32,442 bases of DNA from an uncultured archaeon (GCA_964632315.1 CAZWEM010000011.1:70182-102623); one strand, 5' to 3'; numbered from the stretch's first letter, positions 1 through 22,370 are shown. A program made the numbers and translations. Notes: generated by a model from the letters alone, not told the origin.

Positions 1-522
1 ATGAAATCTAAAAAAATTGTATTAATGGGTTTAGATAATAGCGGAAAATCTTCAATTGTATTATCATTAGAGGGAAGCAAAAATCTTCCAGCATTTTTTA
101 ACATGAAACCTACTAAAAATTATCAAATTAGAAAATTTAATCTCTTAGAAACTGATTTTAGAATATGGGATTTTGGTGGACAGGAACAGTACCGAAAAGA
201 TTATTTACTTAAATTTAAAGAGAATATCAAAGAAACCGATAAATTTATTTTTGTTCTCGACATTCAAGATGTTGTTCGATACGATCTTGCCCTAGATTAT
301 TTAAGGAAGGTTAGCCAATTATTAATTGAAAATGATATAAAAGTCGAATTTTCGATCTTTCTTCATAAATTCGACCCAGATTTGCATATTACCAATTCAA
401 AAATAACTGATGAAAGAATAGATGAATTAATTAAAAAAATTGAGATTGTAATGAATAACAATTTGGAATATGATCTATTTAAAACGACTATTTATGCAAC
501 CTTTCAAAAATCGGAAATTTAA
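1..522 (+). CDS. Small GTPase, Rag/Gtr- or Arf-like (Asgard-type); may extend upstream of the window edge
   Basis: G1 GLDNSGKS (Arf-like), G2 PT, G3 WDFGGQ, and G4 HKFD (HKxD as in Rag/Gtr GTPases). The ORF begins at base 1, so the true start cannot be verified. Confidence 0.88.
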   Translation: MKSKKIVLMGLDNSGKSSIVLSLEGSKNLPAFFNMKPTKNYQIRKFNLLETDFRIWDFGGQEQYRKDYLLKFKENIKETDKFIFVLDIQDVVRYDLALDYLRKVSQLLIENDIKVEFSIFLHKFDPDLHITNSKITDERIDELIKKIEIVMNNNLEYDLFKTTIYATFQKSEI

Positions 523-552
523 ACCTTAAATAAGAAAATAATAAGATTTTCA

Positions 553-3522
553 ATGAGTAATATTTCAAGTTATGTTAAAAGAGATATTTATGAATACTTA
601 ATATTTGGACTTGCGTTATTCCTAACATATCTTTCAAGTTTATACAGTTATCTCTTATTTCATTCTATAGCAGAGTTATTTAGCATTATAATTTCCGGTG
701 GGATTTTTTTAATAGGGTGGAACACGCGGAAATACATCAAAAGTTCCTTTTTCTTGGTGTTGGGTGTTTCCTTTATATTCATTGGGGTTATTGATTTACT
801 CCATACTCTCGCATATTCTGGAATGGGGGTTTTTCCCGCCCCAAGCTCTAATTTAGCAGCCCAATTATGGATCGCAGGTCGTTATGTGAAAGCTTTTTCT
901 TTTGTCTTAGCCTTATCTCTAATTCATAAAAAAGTAAATCCCAAATTTTTATTGGTTTTTTATGTTTTCTTGGATACAATCCTAATTTGGCTAATATTCG
1001 GGGGATTTTTTCCAACAACGTATATTGAAGGTTTTGGACTGACTGGATTTAAAATAGCGAGTGAATATGTTGTAAATATCATCTTTGGTCTATCGTTAGG
1101 AATTTTACTTATGATTAGATATGAATTTAGTAGAAAAGTTTTCATTTATTTGGTTATTTTCTTGGTTTCCACTATCATATCTGAACTCTCTTTTACTTTA
1201 TACGTGAATGTGTTTGACTTCTTCAACTTTATGGGGCACATATTCAAGATAATTGCTTTTTATTTCGTATATAAGGCTATTATTGAAACCGGCTTGGAGG
1301 AACCTTTTCAATTAATGTTTAGGAAGCTTAAAGCAAGTGAAAAATCATTACAAAGTCAAACAGACCATTTAAGGCTCGCATATTCTGAATCTGACCAGAT
1401 CTTTAATGCCGCACTTCCACTAAGAATTATAAATACTAAATTTGAGATAATTAAAGTTAATGAAACTTTCTGCGATTTATTTAATATTAAACCTGAGGAA
1501 GTAATTGGGAAAAAATGTAATGAGATATTTCCTCAAAGTTACTGCAATACTGAAGAATGTGCACTTAAAAGGATTCAGATTTTAAAGAGAGCAGTAGAAC
1601 ATGAAAGTGAGTTTGAATTAGATAATGGTACGAAATTATCATTGATTGTCAACTCAGTTCCATATAATGATAATTTTGGTGAATTTAAAGGAATTATTCA
1701 AAATTATACAAATATTTCGAATTTAAAAGAAGCAGAATTAAGTTTAAAACAGTCAGAGGAAAAATATAGATACTTAATCAACAATTCTCTAGAAGGAGTT
1801 TGGGTTTTAGATACTGAAGCTAAAACCGTTCTAGTGAATCCTTCAATGGCAAGCATGCTAGGATATACTGTTGATGAGATGATGGGAAAGTCATTTTTTA
1901 CATTCATGGATAATAGAGCAAGAGAGTCAGCAGCGATTTACTTCAAGGAGCGAATGGAGGGCATACAAGAAGAACACATGTTTAGATTCCAACATAAAGA
2001 TGGAAACGATATATATACTTCATTACGGGCATCTCCAATTTTTGATAAAGATAACAAATTTAACGGAGCAATGGCATTTATTACGAATGTCACGAAACAA
2101 AAAAGAGCTCAAGACAATTTAAAGGAAGCAGAATTGAAATATCATACTGCTTTTGAAGAATCTCCAGATGGAATCGCAATCCTTGATTCAGATTCACTAA
2201 AACCTTTTGAATTTAATGATAGACTTTGTGATTTATTAGGTTATAGCAGATTAGAATTAAATGACTTGAAAGTACAAGATTTCGAAGATACTAACAATCC
2301 GATAAAAATGGAAGAACACCTAAAAAAAGTTTTAGAGAAGGGAATTGATAAATTTGAAACAAAATTTAAAACAAAATATGGTACCGTGAAAGAAATTCTA
2401 GTTACTACAAAACCGATCAAATTAGCAGGGAATACATATTATCAATCAATCTTCCGAGATATCACTGAAGAAAAGAATGCTCTCGAAAAAATTGAAGATA
2501 TGGCAAAATTTCCAGCTGAAGATCCGAATCCCGTGATGCGAGTAAGTAAAAATTATGTACTCTTAGCTAATAAAGCAAGTCAAGATATTTTTAAGGTAGA
2601 TGAAGGTAGTAAAATTCCCCCAATCTTAGTTGATAGGGTTCAAAGGGCATTTTCTGAGAAGAAAAGTGAAGAATTTGAAATTTTCATTAAAAATCAAGTA
2701 TATTCTCTTTTTATAGTTCCGATCGAGGGTTCAAATTATGCAAATATTTACGGAATGGACATTACGATGAGAAAGAAAGCTAAAGAAGATTTAGAGCGTT
2801 TTGTTACAACAGTTTCACATGAATTAAGAACTCCTATTTCCGTACTTGTTTTGAGTATTGAATTTTTAACTAATCATGCTGAACAATTAACTGAGGAATT
2901 AAAAAATCAAATAAACAATAACATTGAAAAAAATGTTTACCTCCTGAAAGATTTAATCGAGGATATCTTAGTACTCTCTCGAATTGATGAACAAAAGATT
3001 AAGATTGAATGGGAGGAATACCATCCATCAACTCTCATTGAAGAATTATTAAATTTGATGAAACCTATGGGTAAAGAAAAAAATTTTACATTTCAAGTTA
3101 AAGTACCCCAAAATCTAAAATTACATGGTGATCTAAAGAGAATGGAACAAGTGTTTAGAATCTTCATTGATAATGCAATGAAATATTCGAAAGACCATGG
3201 AAATATTATTATTCAAGCAACTGACAGTTATGTTGGAAATTATAATAAAGAGGAAAAAGATGGAGTGTTATTTGAAGTTATTGATAAAGGAATAGGAATT
3301 TCAGCGGAAGATTTACCTAGAATTTTTGATAGGTTTTATCGCTCTGAAGAAGTCACTGATATACCAGGTACGGGATTAGGATTATCAATAGCAAAAGAAT
3401 TAGTTAATCTACATGATGGTGATATTTTTGTTACCAGTGAATTAGGAAAAGGTACTAATTTTTCAATATTTTTACCACGGAATAAACAAAAGAACGAAAA
3501 TTATCAAAATTTTTCAAATTAA
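553..3522 (+). CDS. Membrane sensor histidine kinase: MASE3 + multiple PAS + HisKA + HATPase
   Basis: Hydrophobic N-terminal ~245 aa with MASE3 motifs (LLFHSIAELFS, DLLHTLAY, QLWIAGRY), then 3-4 PAS/PAC repeats, H-box VSHELRTP, N-box DNAMKYS, G-boxes DKGIGI and GTGLGLSI. Confidence 0.93.
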   Translation: MSNISSYVKRDIYEYLIFGLALFLTYLSSLYSYLLFHSIAELFSIIISGGIFLIGWNTRKYIKSSFFLVLGVSFIFIGVIDLLHTLAYSGMGVFPAPSSNLAAQLWIAGRYVKAFSFVLALSLIHKKVNPKFLLVFYVFLDTILIWLIFGGFFPTTYIEGFGLTGFKIASEYVVNIIFGLSLGILLMIRYEFSRKVFIYLVIFLVSTIISELSFTLYVNVFDFFNFMGHIFKIIAFYFVYKAIIETGLEEPFQLMFRKLKASEKSLQSQTDHLRLAYSESDQIFNAALPLRIINTKFEIIKVNETFCDLFNIKPEEVIGKKCNEIFPQSYCNTEECALKRIQILKRAVEHESEFELDNGTKLSLIVNSVPYNDNFGEFKGIIQNYTNISNLKEAELSLKQSEEKYRYLINNSLEGVWVLDTEAKTVLVNPSMASMLGYTVDEMMGKSFFTFMDNRARESAAIYFKERMEGIQEEHMFRFQHKDGNDIYTSLRASPIFDKDNKFNGAMAFITNVTKQKRAQDNLKEAELKYHTAFEESPDGIAILDSDSLKPFEFNDRLCDLLGYSRLELNDLKVQDFEDTNNPIKMEEHLKKVLEKGIDKFETKFKTKYGTVKEILVTTKPIKLAGNTYYQSIFRDITEEKNALEKIEDMAKFPAEDPNPVMRVSKNYVLLANKASQDIFKVDEGSKIPPILVDRVQRAFSEKKSEEFEIFIKNQVYSLFIVPIEGSNYANIYGMDITMRKKAKEDLERFVTTVSHELRTPISVLVLSIEFLTNHAEQLTEELKNQINNNIEKNVYLLKDLIEDILVLSRIDEQKIKIEWEEYHPSTLIEELLNLMKPMGKEKNFTFQVKVPQNLKLHGDLKRMEQVFRIFIDNAMKYSKDHGNIIIQATDSYVGNYNKEEKDGVLFEVIDKGIGISAEDLPRIFDRFYRSEEVTDIPGTGLGLSIAKELVNLHDGDIFVTSELGKGTNFSIFLPRNKQKNENYQNFSN

Positions 3523-3541
3523 TAACAGATGTTATGAGATT

Positions 3542-4414
3542 ATGAGACCACTTGTATTAATAGTTGAAGATAATGTTGACTTGCTGTTTAATTTGGATTT
3601 AATTCTAAAATCAAATAACTATCAAACAATTATTGCAAAAAACGGAGTTGATGCCTTAGAAAAATTAAACACGTCAGATCTTAACCCCAACATCATTATT
3701 AGTGATATTTTAATGCCAAAAATGAATGGATATGAATTCTTTGAAAAGATTTCGAATGATCCACGTTGGCATAGAATTCCATTTATATTTCTTTCAGCTA
3801 AGGCAACTCCTGAAGATATTCGGCTTGGGAAATTACTTGGAGCAGACGACTATATTACAAAGCCGTTTGAGGAAAAAGATTTATTAGCTACCCTTACAGG
3901 ACGAATGAATAGGATTCAAAGAATTGAAAAAATAGACCAAAGTCTCTCCGATTTTAAACTTGATAAAACTGAAATTGAGAATATTCGAAAAGAGAATGAG
4001 TACTTACTTTTTGTCATTTGGGATGATAAATTAGGCCCAGAATTAAAGGATTTTTATCCAAAAAAAGAAAAATTTCATATACCACTTGACAATTTAGCTA
4101 ACCAACTCTTTTCAGCTGTAACTTCCATATATGGCCAAAATTCTATTAATAAAGCAGAGGGATTATTAATTAACATTAAGAACGTCGATTTTTATGGTTA
4201 TGTATATTTTGATGCTTATCCAAGTGAGAGTGAAAGATATGGTGAAAAACAGTACATGCTTGCGTTTCTCTCACCCTTTATAAGTTACCTGCATTCTCTA
4301 GAAATTAAATCTGTGCTTGAAGAAATTTCAATAAAGTTAAAAGAAAATTTAGGCTGGAGTATTAAGAATTATTGGAAACTATTACAAGAACTCATGCTTG
4401 ACGTATTAGATTAA
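3542..4414 (+). CDS. Response regulator: REC domain + C-terminal uDENN/longin-like domain
   Basis: REC motifs VEDN, ISDILMP (phosphoacceptor Asp), FLSAK, KPF. The C-terminal ~135 aa start LLFVIWDDKLGPEL and show no HTH. Confidence 0.88.
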   Translation: MRPLVLIVEDNVDLLFNLDLILKSNNYQTIIAKNGVDALEKLNTSDLNPNIIISDILMPKMNGYEFFEKISNDPRWHRIPFIFLSAKATPEDIRLGKLLGADDYITKPFEEKDLLATLTGRMNRIQRIEKIDQSLSDFKLDKTEIENIRKENEYLLFVIWDDKLGPELKDFYPKKEKFHIPLDNLANQLFSAVTSIYGQNSINKAEGLLINIKNVDFYGYVYFDAYPSESERYGEKQYMLAFLSPFISYLHSLEIKSVLEEISIKLKENLGWSIKNYWKLLQELMLDVLD

Positions 4415-4419
4415 TATAT

Positions 4420-5346
4420 CTAATAATCATAGAGGTCAGTCGATAAATATCTTTCGCCTGTATCACACACAACGAAAACTATATTCTCATCTTGTTCAAA
4501 TTGCTGCGATGCCATATGAATTGCTGCCCAAGCGATCGCTCCGGAACTTATTCCTGCAAAAATTCCTTCTTTTTTAGCTAAATTCCGAGCGGTTTCTACA
4601 GCATCATCATATTTTACCATTATTACCTCATCATAAATTTCCGTATTTAAAACTTCGGGAATAAATCCAGCCCCTATACCTTGAATTTTGTGAGGTCCTG
4701 CTGCACCTCCTGAAAGAACGGGTGAATCAAATGGTTCCACAGCGAAAATCTTGACCCTAGCTCCAACAGAATTCTTTAAGATCTCTCCAACTCCAGTTAT
4801 TGTACCTCCAGTACCAACCCCTGCAACAAAAGCATCTATTCGCCCATCTAAATCGTTAAAAATTTCTTTTGCTGTAGTTTGACGATGAATTTCTGGGTTT
4901 GCTTGATTCTTAAATTGTTGGGGGATAAAGACATTTTGTTTTTCTTTTGCTAATTCTTCAGCCTTTACTATAGCCCCTTTCATCCCTCCTTCTTTAGGAG
5001 TTAGAATCACTTCTGCACCATATGCCTTCAAAACTTTAACTCTTTCTAAAGATACTCCTTCGGGCATTGTCAAGATCAATTTATAGCCCTTCGCCGCGCA
5101 TATCATAGCTAAACCAATTCCAGTATTTCCAGATGTAGGCTCAACAATCGTACTCTCACTTGTTATTAAGCCTTCCTCTTCTGCTTTTTGTATCATAGCA
5201 AAACCGATCCTATCCTTCACACTTCCTCCTGGATTAAAATACTCTAATTTAGCATAGAGATTTGGTTTAATTCCTTTCGAGATCCGATTTAATTTCACTA
5301 AAGGAGTCCTACCAATTGTTTCAATTATATTATTATATATTCTCAT
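4420..5346 (-). CDS. cysK: Cysteine synthase A (O-acetylserine sulfhydrylase)
   Basis: PLP-lysine motif NPGGSVKDR, EPTSGNTG, GVGTGGT, HKIQGIG, GISSGA, DTGERYLST. Confidence 0.96.
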   Translation of the reverse strand: MRIYNNIIETIGRTPLVKLNRISKGIKPNLYAKLEYFNPGGSVKDRIGFAMIQKAEEEGLITSESTIVEPTSGNTGIGLAMICAAKGYKLILTMPEGVSLERVKVLKAYGAEVILTPKEGGMKGAIVKAEELAKEKQNVFIPQQFKNQANPEIHRQTTAKEIFNDLDGRIDAFVAGVGTGGTITGVGEILKNSVGARVKIFAVEPFDSPVLSGGAAGPHKIQGIGAGFIPEVLNTEIYDEVIMVKYDDAVETARNLAKKEGIFAGISSGAIAWAAIHMASQQFEQDENIVFVVCDTGERYLSTDLYDY

Positions 5347-5383
5347 TCATATCACTACTCTTTATTTTGTACTTTAATTTATT

Positions 5384-6214
5384 TTAAATTCCTCCCCCAT
5401 AACTTCCATAATATACTTCTATGTCATCTTCTGCTTTATTTGTAATATTTAATTGGCTTTCTAAATTTTTAAGCCTTTCTTCTAATTTTGATATCGCAAT
5501 AGATAAAGGATCGGGAAGATCACCATGTCTGAGATCGACTCTTTTAATTTTCTCTCCTTCCCTTGAGATAATCCTTCCAGGAACCCCTACAACTACAGAA
5601 TTATCTGGAACACTGTGGATTACCACTGAGTTAGCTCCTATCCTAACATTGTTGCCAACCGTGACTGGACCTAAAATCTTTGCTCCAGTACCTATCACTA
5701 CGTTATCTCCGAGCGTAGGATGCCGTTTTTCGTGCTTTAATTCTGTACCACCAAGTACTACTCCAGCATATATGGTGACATTATTTCCTATTATAGAAGT
5801 TTCTCCAATAACCACTCCACCTCCATGATCTATAAAAAAATCACTTCCTATATCTGCTCCAGGGTGAATTTCGATTCCAGTTAATTCACGGGCAACTTCT
5901 GATAGGTATCTTGGAATAAATGGCATATTTAATTTATTAAGAAAATGTGCAACTCGATGGAGTACTATAGCTTTAACTCCAGGATAACTAGTAATTACTT
6001 CCATTAAAGAACGTGCTGCAGGATCTTTTGTAAAGGCAGCTCTTACATCTGATATAAAAAAATCTAGAATTCGCTGAAGATCAGAATCCACATTTGTAAG
6101 ATCTAAATCAAATGTCTTGAAATCTAGACTCATCAAGCAATCGACACAATAACTATGGGAACTTTTATTAGAGATTTTTTTACCACAATTTAGGCATTTT
6201 AAAAATCCTTCCAT
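5384..6214 (-). CDS. cysE: Serine O-acetyltransferase with N-terminal CxxC...CxxC extension
   Basis: DPAA, YPG, TGIEIHPGA, FIDHG, KRHPTLGDNV hexapeptide repeats, VGVPGR. Directly upstream of cysK. Confidence 0.94.
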   Translation of the reverse strand: MEGFLKCLNCGKKISNKSSHSYCVDCLMSLDFKTFDLDLTNVDSDLQRILDFFISDVRAAFTKDPAARSLMEVITSYPGVKAIVLHRVAHFLNKLNMPFIPRYLSEVARELTGIEIHPGADIGSDFFIDHGGGVVIGETSIIGNNVTIYAGVVLGGTELKHEKRHPTLGDNVVIGTGAKILGPVTVGNNVRIGANSVVIHSVPDNSVVVGVPGRIISREGEKIKRVDLRHGDLPDPLSIAISKLEERLKNLESQLNITNKAEDDIEVYYGSYGGGI

Positions 6215-6514
6215 TTTAATCAGTGATGAATTTAATTATTTTCAGTAATTATTTATGATCTTTTTATAGTATAATTTATGGGTAAACAATAAAATTTTGC
6301 CTATTTTTCATAAGTAAACACATTAATTCAATAATTACTATGAAGTCGATTTATAGTTCAATTGAAGTTCATAAGAAAAAGCTATAAAATAGGTTTAAAT
6401 CCAGTTTTGAGCTAAATTCATAACTTTTTTCATTCCTAAAATTATACTAATATATAAATAACTAAAGCTTCACTTGAGTAATAGGGAAGATTGCTATTCA
6501 GAATGTGACAATCA

Positions 6515-9376
6515 ATGATTTTAGATCAAAAAAAAACAGAAAATCTCGTAGCTCGATATAGTAGATTGTTGAATTCGATTAACAATTTGATATTTATAGT
6601 CACATCTAACTCTGATTTCGTAATTGAATATTGTAATGAATGTGAATTTTTAAATAGTTTGGGATATTTATCAGAGGAATTAATTGGTAAGTCTTTCCTT
6701 GAGATTGTTCATCCAGAGGAGAATAGTCTTATTTCTAGGGTTTTAGGACAAGTTTCTGAACCAATAATCCAAACTCAAGAAATTAAAATCCTAAATACTA
6801 AGAAAGAAGCGGTATGGACAGAAATTAAAGTGAATAAGCTCATAAGTGATGATAAAGAACTTCGATTAATAATTAATCTGAGTGATATAACAAAAAGAAA
6901 AAGATTAGAAGAAGAAATCAAGGTAAACGAAGAGAGATTTAAAAAAATCACGAATACAATTCCAGAAATTCGCTTCTGGAAATTATTTAATCCAAAAAAA
7001 TTTGAAGAAGCATTACAAAGCTCTTATGAGCTGTTAGAAATTGTAATGGAAAACATTCCACAATACATTTACTGGAAGGACATGGAACTTAATTATTTAG
7101 GATGTAATGATAATTATGCAAACCTCATTGGACTTGATTCTCCTGAAAGTATAATAAATAAATCCGATGAGGAAATTTTATGGGATGAGACTCAAATAAA
7201 ACATAATGAGACACATGAAAAGAAAGTAATAGAGACAAACAACCCTAAATTTAGAATGACAGAATCTTGGATCTTAAGAAACGGAAAAAAAATGTGGGTT
7301 AATTGCAATCGAGTGCCACTCGTAGATTCTGATGGAAAAGTGGTAGGAATCCTTGTGACTTTTGAAGATATTACAGAACGAAAGTTAGCAGAAGAAACAT
7401 TACAGATGGAACATCAAAAATTAGAACGTATAATGGAGACTAATCCTGCTGGGATTCTGTCTGTTGACAAAGAAGGAAAGATCACTTATATTAACTCTCA
7501 AGCAGAAAGAGTTCTAAAAACGACAAAGTCCAAGCTACTGAATACGTATCTAAAAAATGGTATTTTTAGAATGTTAGACAATAAAGGAAATCCCCTCAAA
7601 CAGAAAAAACGTCCTTATCAAATTATTCACAAAACTAAAAAACCTCTTTATGATCAACAAATCATCTTTGAAACAACTCACAACGAGCGAATATATATCT
7701 CTTTGAATGGTACTCCGTTGTTAGATGCTGAAGGAGATATTGAAAACATTATCTTTACTGTAGCAGATATAACTGAAAAAGTTTTTGCGGAAGAAAGAAT
7801 CAAAGAATCGGAAAAGAAATACAGAGATTTATTAGAAACCTCATCAGTCGGTATATTAGAAATTGAAGTACAAAACGAAGTTATATCTTATGTGAATTTA
7901 ATAGTAATTGAAATCATGGGATATCAAGAAGATGAATTCTTATATGAAAATTTAAACAAGATTATCCACCCTGATGATTTCATGAAATTATTAAAGTCTA
8001 ATGAAGGAATGGATTTAGAATTTCGAATAATTACGAAAGATGGGAAATTAAAGTGGCTACATGGGAAGAGATCAGACCAATATGATGATGATGGAACTCT
8101 TATCTTATTTCGCCTTTGGGTGGAAGATGTTACCGAGAAGAAAATGTATGAGCAACTAATATATGAACTTAATATAAACTTCTTAAATTTCACGACCAAC
8201 ACTCAGAGGAATATCCAATTATTACTGAACACTTGCTTAAAGCTTCTTGAAGGGAATTTAGTGCTATATGTTAACAAGCGAAGTTACGAAGAAAGGGTTG
8301 AATATGTTATCACTACAAATAAGGGTGAGATAGTAAGATATTCGGCAACTGATTTTGAGGAAAAAATCTTCTGCTCCGAAATTTTTCAAGAAAAACATGA
8401 TTTTCCTCAAGAATATTTTAACGTGCATGAAACTGAATATGCTCTTACTGATAAATTCATAAGGGAGAATGATATTCACACGTGTTATGGTAAATTAATA
8501 TTAACCGGAAATGAATTAAACAATGCAATCTGCGTTCTTTATAAAAGCACTCCGATAATCACCAATCAAAACAAGTTAGTATTATTTTTAATCTGTGATG
8601 CTTTAGAAATAGAGCAGAAACGTTGGCAAGTACAAAAACATTTAGAAGAACAAAACAAAATGCTTAGTGAGATAAATAGATTAAAATCTGAACTTTTTTC
8701 TAGGACTTCTCACGAATTAAAAACTCCTTTAATCTCTATTAAGGGATTCACGGAATTATTGCTGAAGTTGCATTCTAACAAATTAGATGATGATGTTATT
8801 TCAATATTAGAAGAGATTAAAAAAGGCAGTAAACGGTTGGAAAATTACATTAACGCAATCGTTGAAAGCTCTCGATTAGAGCAGGGATTAATAAGACTTA
8901 ATAAAACAAGAGAGAATCTCTCATTTTTAATAAATTATTGTGTCAGGCAGCTTGAAGGAATGGCTGAGCTTAGAGATCAGAAGATATTCGTTAATATTTC
9001 AGAAGATATGACATCACACTTTGATAAAGAAAGAATATATGAGGTCGTGTCAAACTTGTTGTTAAATGCAATAAAGTATACACCAATAGGGGGGACTATC
9101 ACCATAACCTCTAAAGATGATGGAAAAAACTATACTATATTATTTAAAGATACAGGAATTGGTCTAACAGATCAGGAAAAAAAGCAATTGTTTACTCAAT
9201 TTGGTAAAATCGAAAGATATGGTCAAGGATGGGATGTTGGCATAGAGGGTACAGGTCTGGGATTATATATTTCAAAAGAAATTGTAGAATTACACGGAGG
9301 TGTTATTTCAGCAACTTCAGAAGGTCGGAACAAGGGAAGCACGTTTTATTTTTCAATTCCAAAAATTGAGGAATAA
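6515..9376 (+). CDS. Cytoplasmic multi-PAS sensor histidine kinase, with a possible GAF-like segment before HisKA
   Basis: About 4 PAS/PAC repeats (IVHPEE, IYWKD...DITERK, IIHPDD), H-box TSHELKTP, N-box NLLLNAIKYT, DTGIG, GTGLGLYI. No obvious TM segment. Confidence 0.92.
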   Translation: MILDQKKTENLVARYSRLLNSINNLIFIVTSNSDFVIEYCNECEFLNSLGYLSEELIGKSFLEIVHPEENSLISRVLGQVSEPIIQTQEIKILNTKKEAVWTEIKVNKLISDDKELRLIINLSDITKRKRLEEEIKVNEERFKKITNTIPEIRFWKLFNPKKFEEALQSSYELLEIVMENIPQYIYWKDMELNYLGCNDNYANLIGLDSPESIINKSDEEILWDETQIKHNETHEKKVIETNNPKFRMTESWILRNGKKMWVNCNRVPLVDSDGKVVGILVTFEDITERKLAEETLQMEHQKLERIMETNPAGILSVDKEGKITYINSQAERVLKTTKSKLLNTYLKNGIFRMLDNKGNPLKQKKRPYQIIHKTKKPLYDQQIIFETTHNERIYISLNGTPLLDAEGDIENIIFTVADITEKVFAEERIKESEKKYRDLLETSSVGILEIEVQNEVISYVNLIVIEIMGYQEDEFLYENLNKIIHPDDFMKLLKSNEGMDLEFRIITKDGKLKWLHGKRSDQYDDDGTLILFRLWVEDVTEKKMYEQLIYELNINFLNFTTNTQRNIQLLLNTCLKLLEGNLVLYVNKRSYEERVEYVITTNKGEIVRYSATDFEEKIFCSEIFQEKHDFPQEYFNVHETEYALTDKFIRENDIHTCYGKLILTGNELNNAICVLYKSTPIITNQNKLVLFLICDALEIEQKRWQVQKHLEEQNKMLSEINRLKSELFSRTSHELKTPLISIKGFTELLLKLHSNKLDDDVISILEEIKKGSKRLENYINAIVESSRLEQGLIRLNKTRENLSFLINYCVRQLEGMAELRDQKIFVNISEDMTSHFDKERIYEVVSNLLLNAIKYTPIGGTITITSKDDGKNYTILFKDTGIGLTDQEKKQLFTQFGKIERYGQGWDVGIEGTGLGLYISKEIVELHGGVISATSEGRNKGSTFYFSIPKIEE

Positions 9377-9445
9377 GAATTATAATTTTAAAAATATTTA
9401 AGGATAAATAGATATAATATATATTAAAGAAAAGAAGGGTAATGA

Positions 9446-9838
9446 ATGCAATTAAGTAGCTTAGAAAATAACAAGTACATTGATAGAATAAATAAGCTCC
9501 TAATTAGAGAAAAGAATTTTAAAGCAATACGTCTACTTAATAAAATCATTAAGGGTAATCCCTCAAATTATGATGCTTGGTTATTACTTGGAATAGCAAA
9601 AAGACGAGTTAACATGTTGAGTGAAGCTATAAAATGTTTTAAAACAGCAACAAATATAGATCCTGAGAAAGAGGAAGCTTGGGGATTATACACGATTACT
9701 CTTATGGATAATGGAAGAGTTGAAGAAGCACAGCAAGTAATCGAAAAGGCAAGTCAATTAAACCCTTTAAACGACAAACTATCGTTCTACAAGGAAAATC
9801 TTATACATGTTTATGAAAGATTTGGTCCATTCTTTTAA
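9446..9838 (+). CDS. TPR-repeat protein
   Basis: TPR consensus patterns: NPSNYDAWLLLG...EAIKCFKTATNIDPEKEEAW...GRVEEAQQVIEKASQLNP. Confidence 0.85.
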   Translation: MQLSSLENNKYIDRINKLLIREKNFKAIRLLNKIIKGNPSNYDAWLLLGIAKRRVNMLSEAIKCFKTATNIDPEKEEAWGLYTITLMDNGRVEEAQQVIEKASQLNPLNDKLSFYKENLIHVYERFGPFF

Positions 9839-9844
9839 TTTATT

Positions 9845-10096
9845 TCAAAAAAATTCAGGATGCTTTTTCTCAATATTGTTTAGGGTAGATACCAATTCAA
9901 AAAGTAATTTTTCATCACGATATTCATTTATCGTGTTTGATAATCGATCCAGGATTTCATTTGCTAACCTAATATCTTCTTTAGTAAGAGAATGAGTTTT
10001 TGAACCTAATAGCTCATCAAATTCCTCTTCAAACCATTTCAACTTTTCCTTAAATTCATGCTTAATGAAATTGAAATCATCAAAATCTAGATTCAT
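9845..10096 (-). CDS. Small acidic helical hypothetical protein
   Basis: 83-aa ORF with typical composition, preceded on the minus strand by a purine-rich GGAG/AAGG tract, and tightly convergent with the TPR gene. Confidence 0.7.
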   Translation of the reverse strand: MNLDFDDFNFIKHEFKEKLKWFEEEFDELLGSKTHSLTKEDIRLANEILDRLSNTINEYRDEKLLFELVSTLNNIEKKHPEFF

Positions 10097-12289: not shown

Positions 12290-13591
12290 TTATTTCGGTT
12301 TCAAGGATTTTGGAATGGTAAAATAGAATATTGAGCCCTTTCCTACTTCACTTTCAAATGCAATACTTCCTCCGTGAAGTTCGACCAATCTCTTTGTTAA
12401 TGAAAGTCCAAGTCCAGTGCCTTCCGTTACTTTCACGTGTGGATGATTGATCCTCGTGAAATCTGAAAAGATTTTATCAAAATTTTCCTTGCTAATTCCT
12501 ATACCAGTATCTATCACGTCAAACCTCCATTCCTTCTCATTATCGTAAATCATTAGGACTACAATACCTTCTAACGTATATTTAAACGCATTACTTAGGA
12601 GATTATACAATATTTCTCTAAATCGAATTGGATCAGCATTTAAAAATCTATTTTTTTCTAACCCTAACACCTTAAAAACTAAATTCTTTTTCTTATATAA
12701 TGGACTTAATTCTCCTTTCATTTTTTGAATAGTGTTTTCGAGATCAATTTGTTCTATGCTTAATTTTAACTTCCCCGACTCTATTTTTGATATATCAAGA
12801 ATCTGGTTTATAATTTCCAATAAATGATTAGCAGAGTCCTTTATATCGTAAATATAAGATTTTTGGGTCTCGTTTAAGGACTTAAACTCATCTTCAATCA
12901 ACAAATCAGAAAAACCTAAAATTGAATTCATTGGAGTTCGCAATTCATGAGACATAATTGCCATGAATCTGCTTTTAAAATGAGAAGCTTTCATAATCTC
13001 CTCTATATAGAGTTCCTTTTTTTCTAATAAATCCCTTAATGCCTTGGTCTTCTCTTCTACTTCATTCTTAAGGCGTTCAGTAAACGTATCTTTTAATTGT
13101 TCCATTTTCTTTCTTTCAGTAACATCTCTAGCAAATCCATAAAATCCTACCTTATTTCCACTATAATCGTATAATAAATCAATCAAGCCTTCAAAATGAA
13201 TGATTTTATTCTTATTCGTGATAATTTTAATCTCCATTGATGGCGGGAATGGAATTTCAGTCTTGAAGACTTTATTAAACTTTTTGTACACATCATTAGA
13301 TGTTTCTTCATTAAAAATGGTTTGATAGTTACTCCCGGTCAATTCTTCCTTTGAATAATCCACGATTTCACAAAAATTAGCATTCACATAAGCAAAATTA
13401 CCCTGTAAATCAACTTCATAATATCCCTCTCCCATATTTTCGATGATTTTTCGATACCTTCCTTCTCTTACTTTCAGTTCAAGTGGCTTGTTATTAAAAC
13501 CCTTAAATTTCCTTTTTATATCAACCATTACGATATTTTTTTCTAACTCAACCTCCTCTTTTATGCTTATAAGCTGGATTCTTAAAGACAC
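12290..13591 (-). CDS. PAS sensor histidine kinase (start may be the downstream ATG of MVDIKR)
   Basis: One PAS domain (RYRKIIENMGEGYYEVD...RDVTERK), H-box MSHELRTPMN, NLLSNAFKYT, DTGIGI, GTGLGLSL. Confidence 0.92.
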   Translation of the reverse strand: MSLRIQLISIKEEVELEKNIVMVDIKRKFKGFNNKPLELKVREGRYRKIIENMGEGYYEVDLQGNFAYVNANFCEIVDYSKEELTGSNYQTIFNEETSNDVYKKFNKVFKTEIPFPPSMEIKIITNKNKIIHFEGLIDLLYDYSGNKVGFYGFARDVTERKKMEQLKDTFTERLKNEVEEKTKALRDLLEKKELYIEEIMKASHFKSRFMAIMSHELRTPMNSILGFSDLLIEDEFKSLNETQKSYIYDIKDSANHLLEIINQILDISKIESGKLKLSIEQIDLENTIQKMKGELSPLYKKKNLVFKVLGLEKNRFLNADPIRFREILYNLLSNAFKYTLEGIVVLMIYDNEKEWRFDVIDTGIGISKENFDKIFSDFTRINHPHVKVTEGTGLGLSLTKRLVELHGGSIAFESEVGKGSIFYFTIPKSLKPK

Positions 13592-21071: not shown

Positions 21072-22370
21072 ATGAATCATCAAGAAATATTAGATGAAGT
21101 GATTCAAGAAAATGAAGGTAAGATTGGTATAATATGTATCAACTGCCTTATTGTTAGACTTCGATTTAAGGAATTAGAAGAATTCACTTCTAAAAATAAT
21201 ATCATTTTACCTTCTGATAAACAATTAACAAAGTTAGATTATCTAGATCATATCATTGTTCATTATCATCAAAAAATTAAGGATGATCCTCAACTTCAAG
21301 AAAAATATCAAGATCATTTAACTTTCATTGCTGAGGAGCTATTAAGTGATAAAAATATACAAAAATATCTTTCCCGTTTCGACTTTATAGCTGTGCATGA
21401 GTTGATTGAAGCATTTGCTGATTATTGTGCAGATATGGGGATATCGGTATACGATACTTCATACATGGAGGAGGATGAATTTAATACCGACTTGTATCTT
21501 ATTAAAAAAAAACCATTTTTACGAATAGAGGCAGTTTTTGTGCGTACTGGAGCCCAAATGTCTAAAGAACAATACAAAAATACTTTTTATGTATTAAATA
21601 AAGCCTCAAAAATCGCTACTTGGACTGTTTTTGTAACCACTCCAAAAGGAGTTCATAATATTGGATTAAAAAGATTAATTACTGATATGGAAAAATTAAA
21701 CGTTTGGTTTTATGTGGTTGATCCCGTAGAACAAAGAGTATTAGGCATTACAAAAGGAAAAAAATCTAAAGATCAAGAAACTGATTTAAGGGATAAATAT
21801 CTTCGTAAAGTACCAAAAGAACCCATTCGAGCTCCTTCAAGGTTAGTGAATATATCGAATTACCAATTTAGTGAATCAGATTCTTATGATCCCAAGATGT
21901 TTACATTATATGGAATATTGCCCAAGCAAATTGCCATTAAAAGAGAGAAATTAATTGTTAGGAAACCGAAATACCGAGAGATTTTTCGAACATTATTGAT
22001 TATTAATAAAATTTCGGGTTTACCATTGATTACTCATTCTAGAGAAGATTTAAAAATTGATCAAGAGTTAATTTCGGGATTTCTAAGTGCCATGGATTCC
22101 TTCATTACTGAATTAAGTGGAGCAAGTGGAATGTCCGAAATAAATTATAAAGGATTTTATATTATTGGAGAAGTAGGAGATGCTGTAAAAGTTGCTTTAA
22201 TTCTTACAGAACCTGCTTCAAAAAGTTTGAAGGAAAGACTAATTTATTTTCTAAAAGATTTCGAAGATCGCTATGATGAAGAGATAAAAGTATTTTCAAA
22301 GACGGGGAATACAAAAGTTTTTGACGAGAATATAATAATCTCCGATATAAAGGACATTTTGGATGTATAA
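21072..22370 (+). CDS. Hypothetical protein: central restriction-endonuclease-like fold + C-terminal Asgard longin-like domain
   Basis: The C-terminus LLIINKISGLPL...DQELISGFLSAMDSFITEL...EINYKGFYI...FEDRY fits the Asgard longin pattern. The centre has DLYL...EAVFVR...VFVTT...WFYVVD. Confidence 0.75.
   Translation: MNHQEILDEVIQENEGKIGIICINCLIVRLRFKELEEFTSKNNIILPSDKQLTKLDYLDHIIVHYHQKIKDDPQLQEKYQDHLTFIAEELLSDKNIQKYLSRFDFIAVHELIEAFADYCADMGISVYDTSYMEEDEFNTDLYLIKKKPFLRIEAVFVRTGAQMSKEQYKNTFYVLNKASKIATWTVFVTTPKGVHNIGLKRLITDMEKLNVWFYVVDPVEQRVLGITKGKKSKDQETDLRDKYLRKVPKEPIRAPSRLVNISNYQFSESDSYDPKMFTLYGILPKQIAIKREKLIVRKPKYREIFRTLLIINKISGLPLITHSREDLKIDQELISGFLSAMDSFITELSGASGMSEINYKGFYIIGEVGDAVKVALILTEPASKSLKERLIYFLKDFEDRYDEEIKVFSKTGNTKVFDENIIISDIKDILDV

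Follow-up and report, generated by a model that had tools for sequence, protein, structure and literature searches.

The first 4,414 nucleotides (nt) of a stretch of DNA from an uncultured archaeon hold three genes that we describe here as a cassette, encoding a Rag/Arf-like small GTPase, a membrane histidine kinase, and a response regulator that joins a receiver (REC) domain to a longin domain. The whole stretch analyzed, 32,442 nt long and called the window below, is contig 11, 70182-102623, of a 4.45-Mb genome in 119 contigs. Synteny and co-divergence make a strong case that the GTPase is the fixed partner of the REC-longin regulator, and we consider it reasonably probable that the cassette is a phosphorylation-controlled small-GTPase regulator acting as a signal-gated GTPase-activating protein (GAP). 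The arrangement of GTPase, kinase, and REC-longin genes lies far beyond chance, being shared by different genera and families and present twice in this genome. A first interpretation of this DNA, made without database searches (the sequence-only reading), had proposed that phosphorylation of the receiver switches a longin module that controls the neighboring GTPase. This interpretation is supported as far as computation goes, and the specific GAP mechanism is plausible. The features concerned are the following.

1-522, plus strand: small GTPase of 173 amino acids (aa) (P0001), from Pfam and motifs.
553-3522, plus strand: membrane sensor histidine kinase of 989 aa (P0002), from Pfam and motifs.
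3542-4414, plus strand: REC-longin response regulator of 290 aa (P0003), from Pfam, the alignment of relatives, and an AlphaFold2 (AF2) model.
3554-3895, plus strand: REC domain, residues 5-118 of the regulator, from Pfam (Response_reg, 1.9e-23).
4001-4402, plus strand: predicted longin domain, residues 154-287, from AF2 topology, Foldseek, VIA-align, and an ESM Atlas shape search.
4019-4039, plus strand: W160-D161-D162-K-L-G165-P166, the "WD" and "GP" motifs in the beta1-beta2 loop, from the alignment and AF2, with the motif defined as in PMC12290439 and PMC8213707.
4235-4237, plus strand: codon of Arg232, the candidate arginine finger in the beta4-beta5 loop, from conservation and from the loop position in the models.

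The open reading frames (ORFs) of the three genes are separated by gaps of exactly 30 and 19 nt, just as the sequence-only reading had described for three co-oriented genes, and only two short ORFs (61 and 67 aa) run antisense within them. The source labels of cassette homologues are Lokiarchaeota or Promethearchaeota.

The C-terminal domain of the regulator (C-domain) is predicted to have a longin fold, nearest to those of NPRL2, Lst4/FLCN, C9orf72-SMCR8, and a solved Lokiarchaeal longin. AF2 models were built from a 30-row alignment for the whole regulator and a 29-row alignment for residues 138-290, and the predicted local distance difference test score (pLDDT) was 83 for the whole protein and 83.4 for the C-domain alone, with a predicted template modeling score (pTM) of 0.81 for the latter. 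Because a fold search based on the whole regulator had picked up nothing but receiver domains (Z over 20 to CheY-like receivers), the C-domain was also modeled by itself. Its modeled topology, beta-beta-alpha-beta-beta-beta-alpha-alpha, is that of a longin. In a Foldseek search against the PDB, the first match was NPRL2 in GATOR1 (9v0j_A, E 4.9e-5), followed by Npr2, the Lst4 longin, the Lokiarchaeal Roadblock-Longin structure 8yqg, FNIP2, and FLCN (8dhb_J, TMq 0.65). VIA-align, which is independent of Foldseek, gave Z scores of 12.2 for 8yqg_B, 12.1 for Lst4, 11.9 for 6nzd_H (an FLCN-FNIP2-Rag-Ragulator entry), 11.7 for 7o2w_A (a C9orf72-SMCR8 entry), and 10.9 for 8fw5_C (a GATOR1 entry), while the longins of TRAPP, VAMP7, DENN proteins (DENND1A and DENND10), and Mon1-Ccz1 scored 8-10 and roadblock proteins about 8.

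Among the nearest neighbors in the ESM Atlas shape search were an SMCR8-like cluster and a fungal UDENN cluster of FLCN/SMCR8 type, together with a Heimdall cluster carrying Folliculin PF11704 on 23% of its members and a Loki-type (Promethearchaeota) cluster carrying NPR2 PF06218 on 19%. Two Asgard clusters found in this search join such a longin to an Arf/Ras-type (Arf/Rag-like) GTPase in one protein. The feature search of the same atlas returned only an unnamed archaeal cluster, at 0.77. Among 50 database relatives of the C-domain, all are proteins of 284-309 aa with a REC domain and the same C-domain, except for one 221-aa entry in which no receiver is recorded.

Two other folds were considered for the C-domain and rejected. 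A PAS/LOV-like reading gave Foldseek E values of about 5e-3 with a root-mean-square deviation (rmsd) of 10-18 Å and TM scores of 0.3-0.4, compared with TM scores of 0.5-0.65 for longins. A roadblock (MglB-like) reading conflicts with a core that lacks the N-terminal roadblock helix and has two C-terminal helices, and it scores a Z of about 8 versus about 12 for longins. The sequence-only reading had expected a non-helix-turn-helix output domain of uDENN/longin type. The longin part agrees with AF2, Foldseek, and VIA-align, and the nearest structures belong to the very families it had named (NPRL2, FLCN/Lst4, FNIP2, and C9orf72-SMCR8), whereas the label "uDENN" was too strong because the longin domain is not continued by a DENN module: no DENN-type region follows the longin, and the regulator stops at residue 290, past longin helix 3.

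The evidence for the GTPase partner comes first from this genome itself. A genome-wide hidden Markov model search gave 43 small-GTPase hits, only two of them above 200 bits, and both of these sit at the only two loci in the genome that match the longin profile. Of about 42 ORFs for small GTPases, just these two belong to the cassette GTPase's subfamily. The second locus is a paralogous cassette on contig 24 (L005 7281-12377, minus strand) made up of a double-winged helix-turn-helix (wHTH) protein of 217 aa, a GTPase of 180 aa, a PAS kinase of 583 aa without MASE3, and a REC-longin protein of 303 aa, with homologues of KaiB and KaiC coming immediately after. The longin family is present in 164 of 400 Asgard genomes; within the window's family the figure is 121 of 134, and in another family all 22 genomes have it. 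Two closed genomes of a sister family in the same order (about 4.4 and 6.0 Mb) showed no longin-family match or a weak one (9.8e-9), so that not all Lokiarchaeia possess the cassette.

Three loci at 44-56% longin identity keep the order GTPase, kinase, REC-longin, with an ArsR-type gene in front. We took 40 further loci from at least 16 genera, 32 of which carry a REC-longin gene, 31 of these not being cut by a contig end. On the same strand and within 3.3 kb, a Rag/Arf-like GTPase (at least 95 bits) was found at 19 of the 31 loci, and a kinase gene adjoins the REC-longin gene at 22 of the 32. Rough arithmetic with about 10 such GTPases in 4.45 Mb puts the chance of such proximity at about 1%, a figure to be read with the fact that the sampled genomes are related and the locus counts not independent.

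Two gene orders can be distinguished among these loci. In type A, to which the window's cassette belongs, GTPase, kinase, and REC-longin genes follow each other on one strand; in type B, a divergent kinase gene precedes the REC-longin gene, and the GTPase gene stands directly behind the latter. At the type-B loci (L052, L054, L057, L058, L060, L077, L081, and L082) the GTPase, a distinct Rag/Arf-like protein of 182-188 aa, begins 22-182 nt after REC-longin, and the upstream kinase lies on the opposite strand at six of the eight, no adjacent kinase being found at L052 and L081. Several genomes carry both types. In maximum-likelihood phylogenies, longin domains and GTPases alike divide into A and B with 100% support, several sister pairs match between the two trees, and in four genomes with both types the longin and GTPase copies cluster by type, not by genome. 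The parallel split is a single ancient event and not a series of independent ones, but it shows that regulator and GTPase have traveled as a pair. The synteny that the sequence-only reading's module would imply in relatives was thus found, in many Lokiarchaeial genera, in a paralogous cassette of the same genome, and with co-diverging parts.

If there were no direct contact, the GTPase and the two-component pair would merely be co-located or co-regulated, and the longin would bind another partner or ligand. This would fit the 10 of 32 sampled REC-longin loci without a GTPase within 8 kb, the fusion of the longin family to other N-terminal regions, and the weaker PAS/LOV sensor fold matches of the C-domain (E about 5e-3, rmsd over 10 Å). 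We nevertheless hold it to be highly improbable, since the subfamily GTPases and REC-longin genes of this genome match one to one, the pairing survives the rearrangement of gene order between type A and type B, the longin and GTPase trees split in parallel, and Arf/Rag-like GTPases are fused to related longins.

Several loci show further variation in the genes around the longin family. The window's genome has a type-B-like GTPase without a REC-longin partner (contig 6, 29144-29692). In lineages further removed, other types of GTPase accompany the REC-longin genes. At the Helarchaeal locus L009, kinase and REC-longin are kept and a different, Ras/Rab-like GTPase (NKSD) lies two genes downstream (9073-10007 region); an unknown 137-aa ORF at this locus showed no similarity to the longin profile by hhalign. 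A 168-aa GTPase adjoins REC-longin at L043, with more GTPase-domain ORFs of 180-329 aa nearby, and three GTPase-domain proteins of 321-416 aa stand beside REC-longin at L048. The longin family is also found at the C terminus of longer proteins without a recognizable receiver (L044 8001-9683, L047 7452-8456, and L059 7986-9236; also P0209 of 821 aa and P0220 of 618 aa).

The longin carries motifs that point to GAP activity. G165-P166 stand immediately before strand 2, where a GP motif occurs in FLCN, NPRL2, SMCR8, and C9orf72 and is absent from non-GAP longins (DENND, TRAPP, and adaptin), and Asgard longins with a GP motif plus an Arg finger have been reported (PMC12290439, 2025). In the C9orf72-SMCR8 complex, Arf1 GAP activity depends on W33-D34 of C9orf72, with R147 of SMCR8 as the finger (PMC8213707); the spacing from C9orf72 W33-D34 to G38-P39, WD-x3-GP, is also that from W160-D161 to G165-P166. 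Among 30 aligned relatives, the invariant longin residues are W160, G165, P166, P173, G198, N214, D224, R232, M239, I255, S263, and K267, and D161 is nearly invariant; across 121 representatives of the wider longin family, W is conserved in 95%, G in 95%, P in 93%, and D161 in 76%. An hhalign comparison of the family profile with NPRL2, whose segment was checked against PDB 6ces_N and found identical over residues 7-84, placed the GP motif on G20-P21 and aligned the next helix, and this match is weak (E 0.023, probability 2%). In the models, the sheet order 2-1-5-4-3 would put the beta4-beta5 loop with Arg232 beside the beta1-beta2 loop, and R232 may be equivalent to NPRL2 R78, which also lies just ahead of a hydrophobic strand.

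The partner fits a client for such a GAP. The best Pfam match of the GTPase is Gtr1_RagA (2.8e-19, spanning profile positions 1-161 of 232), followed by Arf (6.1e-18), and its motifs are of Arf type in G1 and G3 and of Rag type in G4 and G5. G1 is GLDNSGKS (nt 28-51), in line with Arf-like GLDxxGK; G3 is DFGGQ (nt 169-183), where WDFGGQ fits Arf WDxGGQ and which holds the catalytic Gln61; and a G5-like TTIYA (nt 484-498) resembles the TSI-like G5 of Rag proteins. The Rag-type HKxD G4 that the sequence-only reading had seen is indeed present as HKFD (residues 122-125, nt 364-375), nearly invariant among 40 relatives, in the place where Arf proteins have NKxD. Neither the C-terminal roadblock dimerization domain of Rag proteins nor the N-terminal amphipathic helix of Arf proteins is found in this 173-aa GTPase, which stops at the end of the G domain and has just four residues before its first strand. 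Its closest PDB sequences are chains named "GTP-binding protein", 8yl2 (1.8e-19) and 8zla/9m28, then Arl6, RagC/D, and Arf1; the title of 9m28 is that of a Rag-like GTPase of Asgard Lokiarchaeota. Gln61 is retained in this protein, whose G1 position (GLDNSGKS) offers no intrinsic arginine.

We favor the GAP direction because of the GP and WD motifs, the conserved arginine, the GAP-type structural neighbors, and a client that has Gln61 but no arginine of its own. The longin might instead bind the neighboring GTPase in the role of guanine nucleotide exchange factor (GEF), scaffold, or effector platform, so that REC phosphorylation loads or localizes the GTPase. For the most part, dimers of longin and roadblock proteins act as GEFs or platforms (TRAPP, Mon1-Ccz1, DENN, and Ragulator), the longins of DENND1A, DENND10, Mon1-Ccz1, and TRAPP appear in our fold lists with Z scores of 8-10, and synteny and co-divergence would suit a GEF or scaffold equally well. 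Yet the best structural matches are GAP-type longins, the GP motif is specific to GAP longins and absent from the DENND, TRAPP, and adaptin longins (PMC12290439), and the arginine in the adjacent loop is invariant among close relatives, so that we regard a GEF or scaffold function as unlikely.

A signaling route to the longin can be proposed from the other parts of the cassette. As the sequence-only reading had stated, the kinase is a membrane MASE3-PAS histidine kinase: it has MASE3 at residues 29-251 (6.7e-78), three PAS domains at about residues 280-650, HisKA at 747-813 (8.2e-12), and HATPase_c at 859-977 (2.7e-27). Its H-box SHELRTP (nt 2815-2835), G1 box DKGIGI, and G2 box GTGLGL are intact. 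In the receiver, the E9-D10 acidic pair, the phospho-acceptor Asp55 (nt 3704-3706), S84, and Lys107-Pro108 (nt 3860-3865) are conserved, and in the AF2 model helix 5 of the receiver extends into a long linker helix (residues 111-136). Judged by these residues and boxes, both proteins are predicted to be competent for signaling.

In the mechanism we propose, the membrane kinase would detect a signal and phosphorylate Asp55 of the regulator, which most likely would drive or rearrange dimerization through the receiver and the long linker helix. The outcome would be a homodimeric platform of two longins that resembles the eukaryotic longin GAP complexes and engages its cognate Rag/Arf-like GTPase, the product of the gene two places upstream. 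The GTPase would be gripped by the W-D-x3-G-P loop, Arg232 would enter as an arginine finger beside Gln61 of the GTPase, and the GTPase would hand its state on to a downstream effector. The analysis shows the domain content, the modeled longin fold with its closest structures, the motifs with their conservation, and a conserved, co-diverging pairing of the genes; from these features we infer phosphotransfer, dimerization, binding, the GAP rather than GEF direction, and the downstream output.

Information could also flow the other way, with the GTPase acting through the longin on phosphotransfer, dephosphorylation, or kinase activity of the two-component system, as has been proposed for the conservon of Streptomyces. 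There, kinase, roadblock protein, and GTPase interact in a way that requires both catalytic activities, and the GTPase is regarded as the output or partner of the system. The Pfam search gave the REC-longin protein no DNA-binding or enzymatic output, and an ArsR-type wHTH gene (about 111 aa) stands ahead of the GTPase in 13 of the 14 other type-A cassettes, both of which would suit a reverse flow. We find it quite improbable all the same: REC domains are normally inputs for the output domain attached to them, the longin has candidate catalytic motifs of GAP type, and a standard HisKA/HATPase_c kinase comes here with its own receiver, whereas the conservon has no response regulator.

A number of observations weigh against a signal-gated GAP, or against parts of it. 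Residues 125-290 of the regulator had no Pfam match, and the C-domain had no match among PDB sequences in a profile search, both even at E=10; homology of the C-domain to FLCN or NPRL2 is not demonstrable at the sequence level. The hhalign alignment with NPRL2 covers 33 columns and ends before R78, the identity of R232 with the eukaryotic Arg finger would follow from loop topology and not from superposition, and R232 is an arginine in 82 of 109 aligned representatives of the wider longin family (75%). The majority of longin and roadblock platforms work as GEFs or scaffolds, the bacterial GAP MglB functions without an Arg finger, and in eukaryotes longin GAPs form heterodimers whose DENN or other extra domains are absent from this regulator. 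The loci without a nearby GTPase, about a third of the REC-longin loci sampled, count here as well. Finally, a TATA-like TTAAATAA lies at 524-534 of the window, within the 30-nt gap and 20-27 nt ahead of the kinase ATG, so that the kinase may have an internal promoter for a leaderless transcript, and the three genes are a candidate rather than an established operon.

Compared with known systems, the cassette is closest to the eukaryotic GAPs GATOR1 (NPRL2-NPRL3, acting on RagA/B), FLCN-FNIP (RagC/D), and C9orf72-SMCR8 (Arf), whose longins are the best structural matches to the cassette longin. They share with it the GP motif before strand 2 and a Rag/Arf-type client (a predicted one in the cassette) with a catalytic glutamine, and the models of the cassette longin place a conserved arginine in the neighboring loop. 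In contrast to these heterodimers of large longin-DENN or longin-plus-extra-domain proteins, the cassette regulator is encoded by one small gene; its longin has no DENN or NPRL2 C-terminal domain and no sequence-profile match detectable in Pfam or among PDB sequences, and its GTPase has no Rag roadblock domain. Control also differs, being exerted, as proposed, by a fused receiver and a histidine kinase in the cassette and by lysosomal nutrient sensors in the eukaryotic longin GAPs.

Fusions of NPRL2-like longins with two-component domains in Asgard archaea have been published (Liu et al., bioRxiv 10.1101/2020.10.19.343400; Nature 2021). Liu et al. suggested that Asgard growth control stays centered on two-component systems and noted that conserved neighborhoods are lacking for most such genes (bioRxiv 10.1101/2020.10.19.343400). 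The clients of GP-motif longins, Arf-related or Rag/Gtr GTPases, were left open (PMC12290439), and Tran et al. found that in the cultured Lokiarchaeon strain MK-D1 GTPase genes do not, as a rule, share operons with genes for longin or roadblock proteins and that pairs are hard to predict from genome layout. In its architecture (REC plus NPRL2-like longin) and motif class, the cassette regulator resembles the families of Liu et al. and PMC12290439, and it almost certainly belongs to one of these published Asgard REC-longin families. While those studies supply architectures and motifs, the cassette adds a dedicated GTPase partner by synteny and co-divergence, and our full-text literature searches found no paper describing the cassette or its fixed GTPase partner. 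The novelty is the fixed pairing of regulator and GTPase, not the REC-longin fusion.

The sequence-only reading knew of no characterized link between a His-Asp phosphorelay and a eukaryote-like GTPase switch. Characterized bacterial cases of His-Asp signaling linked to small GTPases exist in Myxococcus (Frz/RomR-MglA-MglB) and in the Streptomyces conservon, and the concept is less unprecedented than that reading supposed. The conservon (kinase CvnA, roadblock protein CvnB, CvnC, and GTPase CvnD) clusters a kinase, a protein of the roadblock/longin superfamily, and a small GTPase, as the cassette does. However, it has a free roadblock protein, the extra CvnC, and an MglA-like GTPase, whereas the cassette combines a receiver-fused longin with a Rag/Arf-like GTPase and contains neither a free roadblock gene nor a fourth gene of Cvn type. 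In the Frz-RomR/RomX-MglA/MglB system, receiver proteins and a roadblock GAP steer a small GTPase below a His-Asp pathway, as proposed for the cassette; there, the receivers (RomR, FrzX/Z) and the GAP (MglB, a roadblock protein without an Arg finger) are separate proteins, and the genes do not form a single kinase-regulator-GTPase cassette. Another archaeal response regulator with a Roadblock/LC7-related output is the thaumarchaeal REC-NitrOD3 (Galperin et al. 2018), which differs from the cassette regulator in its roadblock-like output and its phylum, and "GTPase" does not occur in the passages of that source that were searched.

In Asgard genomes small GTPases number in the dozens, as do longin and roadblock proteins, and almost no GTPase has an assigned regulator. 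The cassette offers a matched set of one kinase, one receiver-longin protein, and one 173-aa GTPase, and so a candidate regulator that is testable together with its target. If the GAP reading is true, the longin-GAP mechanism of GATOR1, folliculin, and C9orf72-SMCR8 would be present in archaea in a simple homodimeric form, and a prokaryotic His-Asp relay that drove a longin GAP would be a concrete intermediate between prokaryotic and eukaryotic signaling. If it is false, the outcome would still exclude one function for an output domain that is widespread among Asgard response regulators.

The neighboring genes allow us to speculate further. Upstream, 13 of 15 type-A cassettes have a divergent gene for an Lrp/AsnC-type regulator, which none of the eight type-B loci has; upstream of the window (L004 9615-11893), this divergent regulator is accompanied by CysRS. 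The ArsR-type gene is missing upstream of the window's GTPase, where the GTPase start and the divergent AsnC gene are only 107 nt apart (L004 11894-12000). Convergently downstream of the cassette, at 4420-6214 on the minus strand of the window, stand CysK (TIGR01139, 5e-136) and CysE (TIGR01172, 1e-65), which recur at L006, L010, and L079. These neighbors hint, by synteny among relatives, at a link to amino acids or sulfur. Because the type-A neighbor is an Lrp/AsnC "feast/famine" regulator and cysteine-synthesis genes accompany it in the lineage, the cassette might report amino-acid or sulfur status. Tentatively, and with more doubt than confidence, we picture a minimal, prokaryote-wired relative of the GATOR1/FLCN-Rag switch, in which a homodimeric GP-longin GAP gated by Asp phosphorylation serves a dedicated GTPase, perhaps in reporting amino-acid or sulfur status, and in which the nutrient logic of longin GAPs and Rag GTPases would predate eukaryotes.

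Elsewhere in the window, positions 1-6600 had no Rfam match, and a 432-aa ORF at 21072-22370 (plus strand) had no Pfam match and no similarity of its C terminus to the REC-longin profile by hhalign. Two more PAS histidine kinases are encoded at 6515-9838 (plus strand) and 12290-13591 (minus strand); the gene that follows the first of them (953 aa) encodes a 130-aa TPR protein and not a response regulator.

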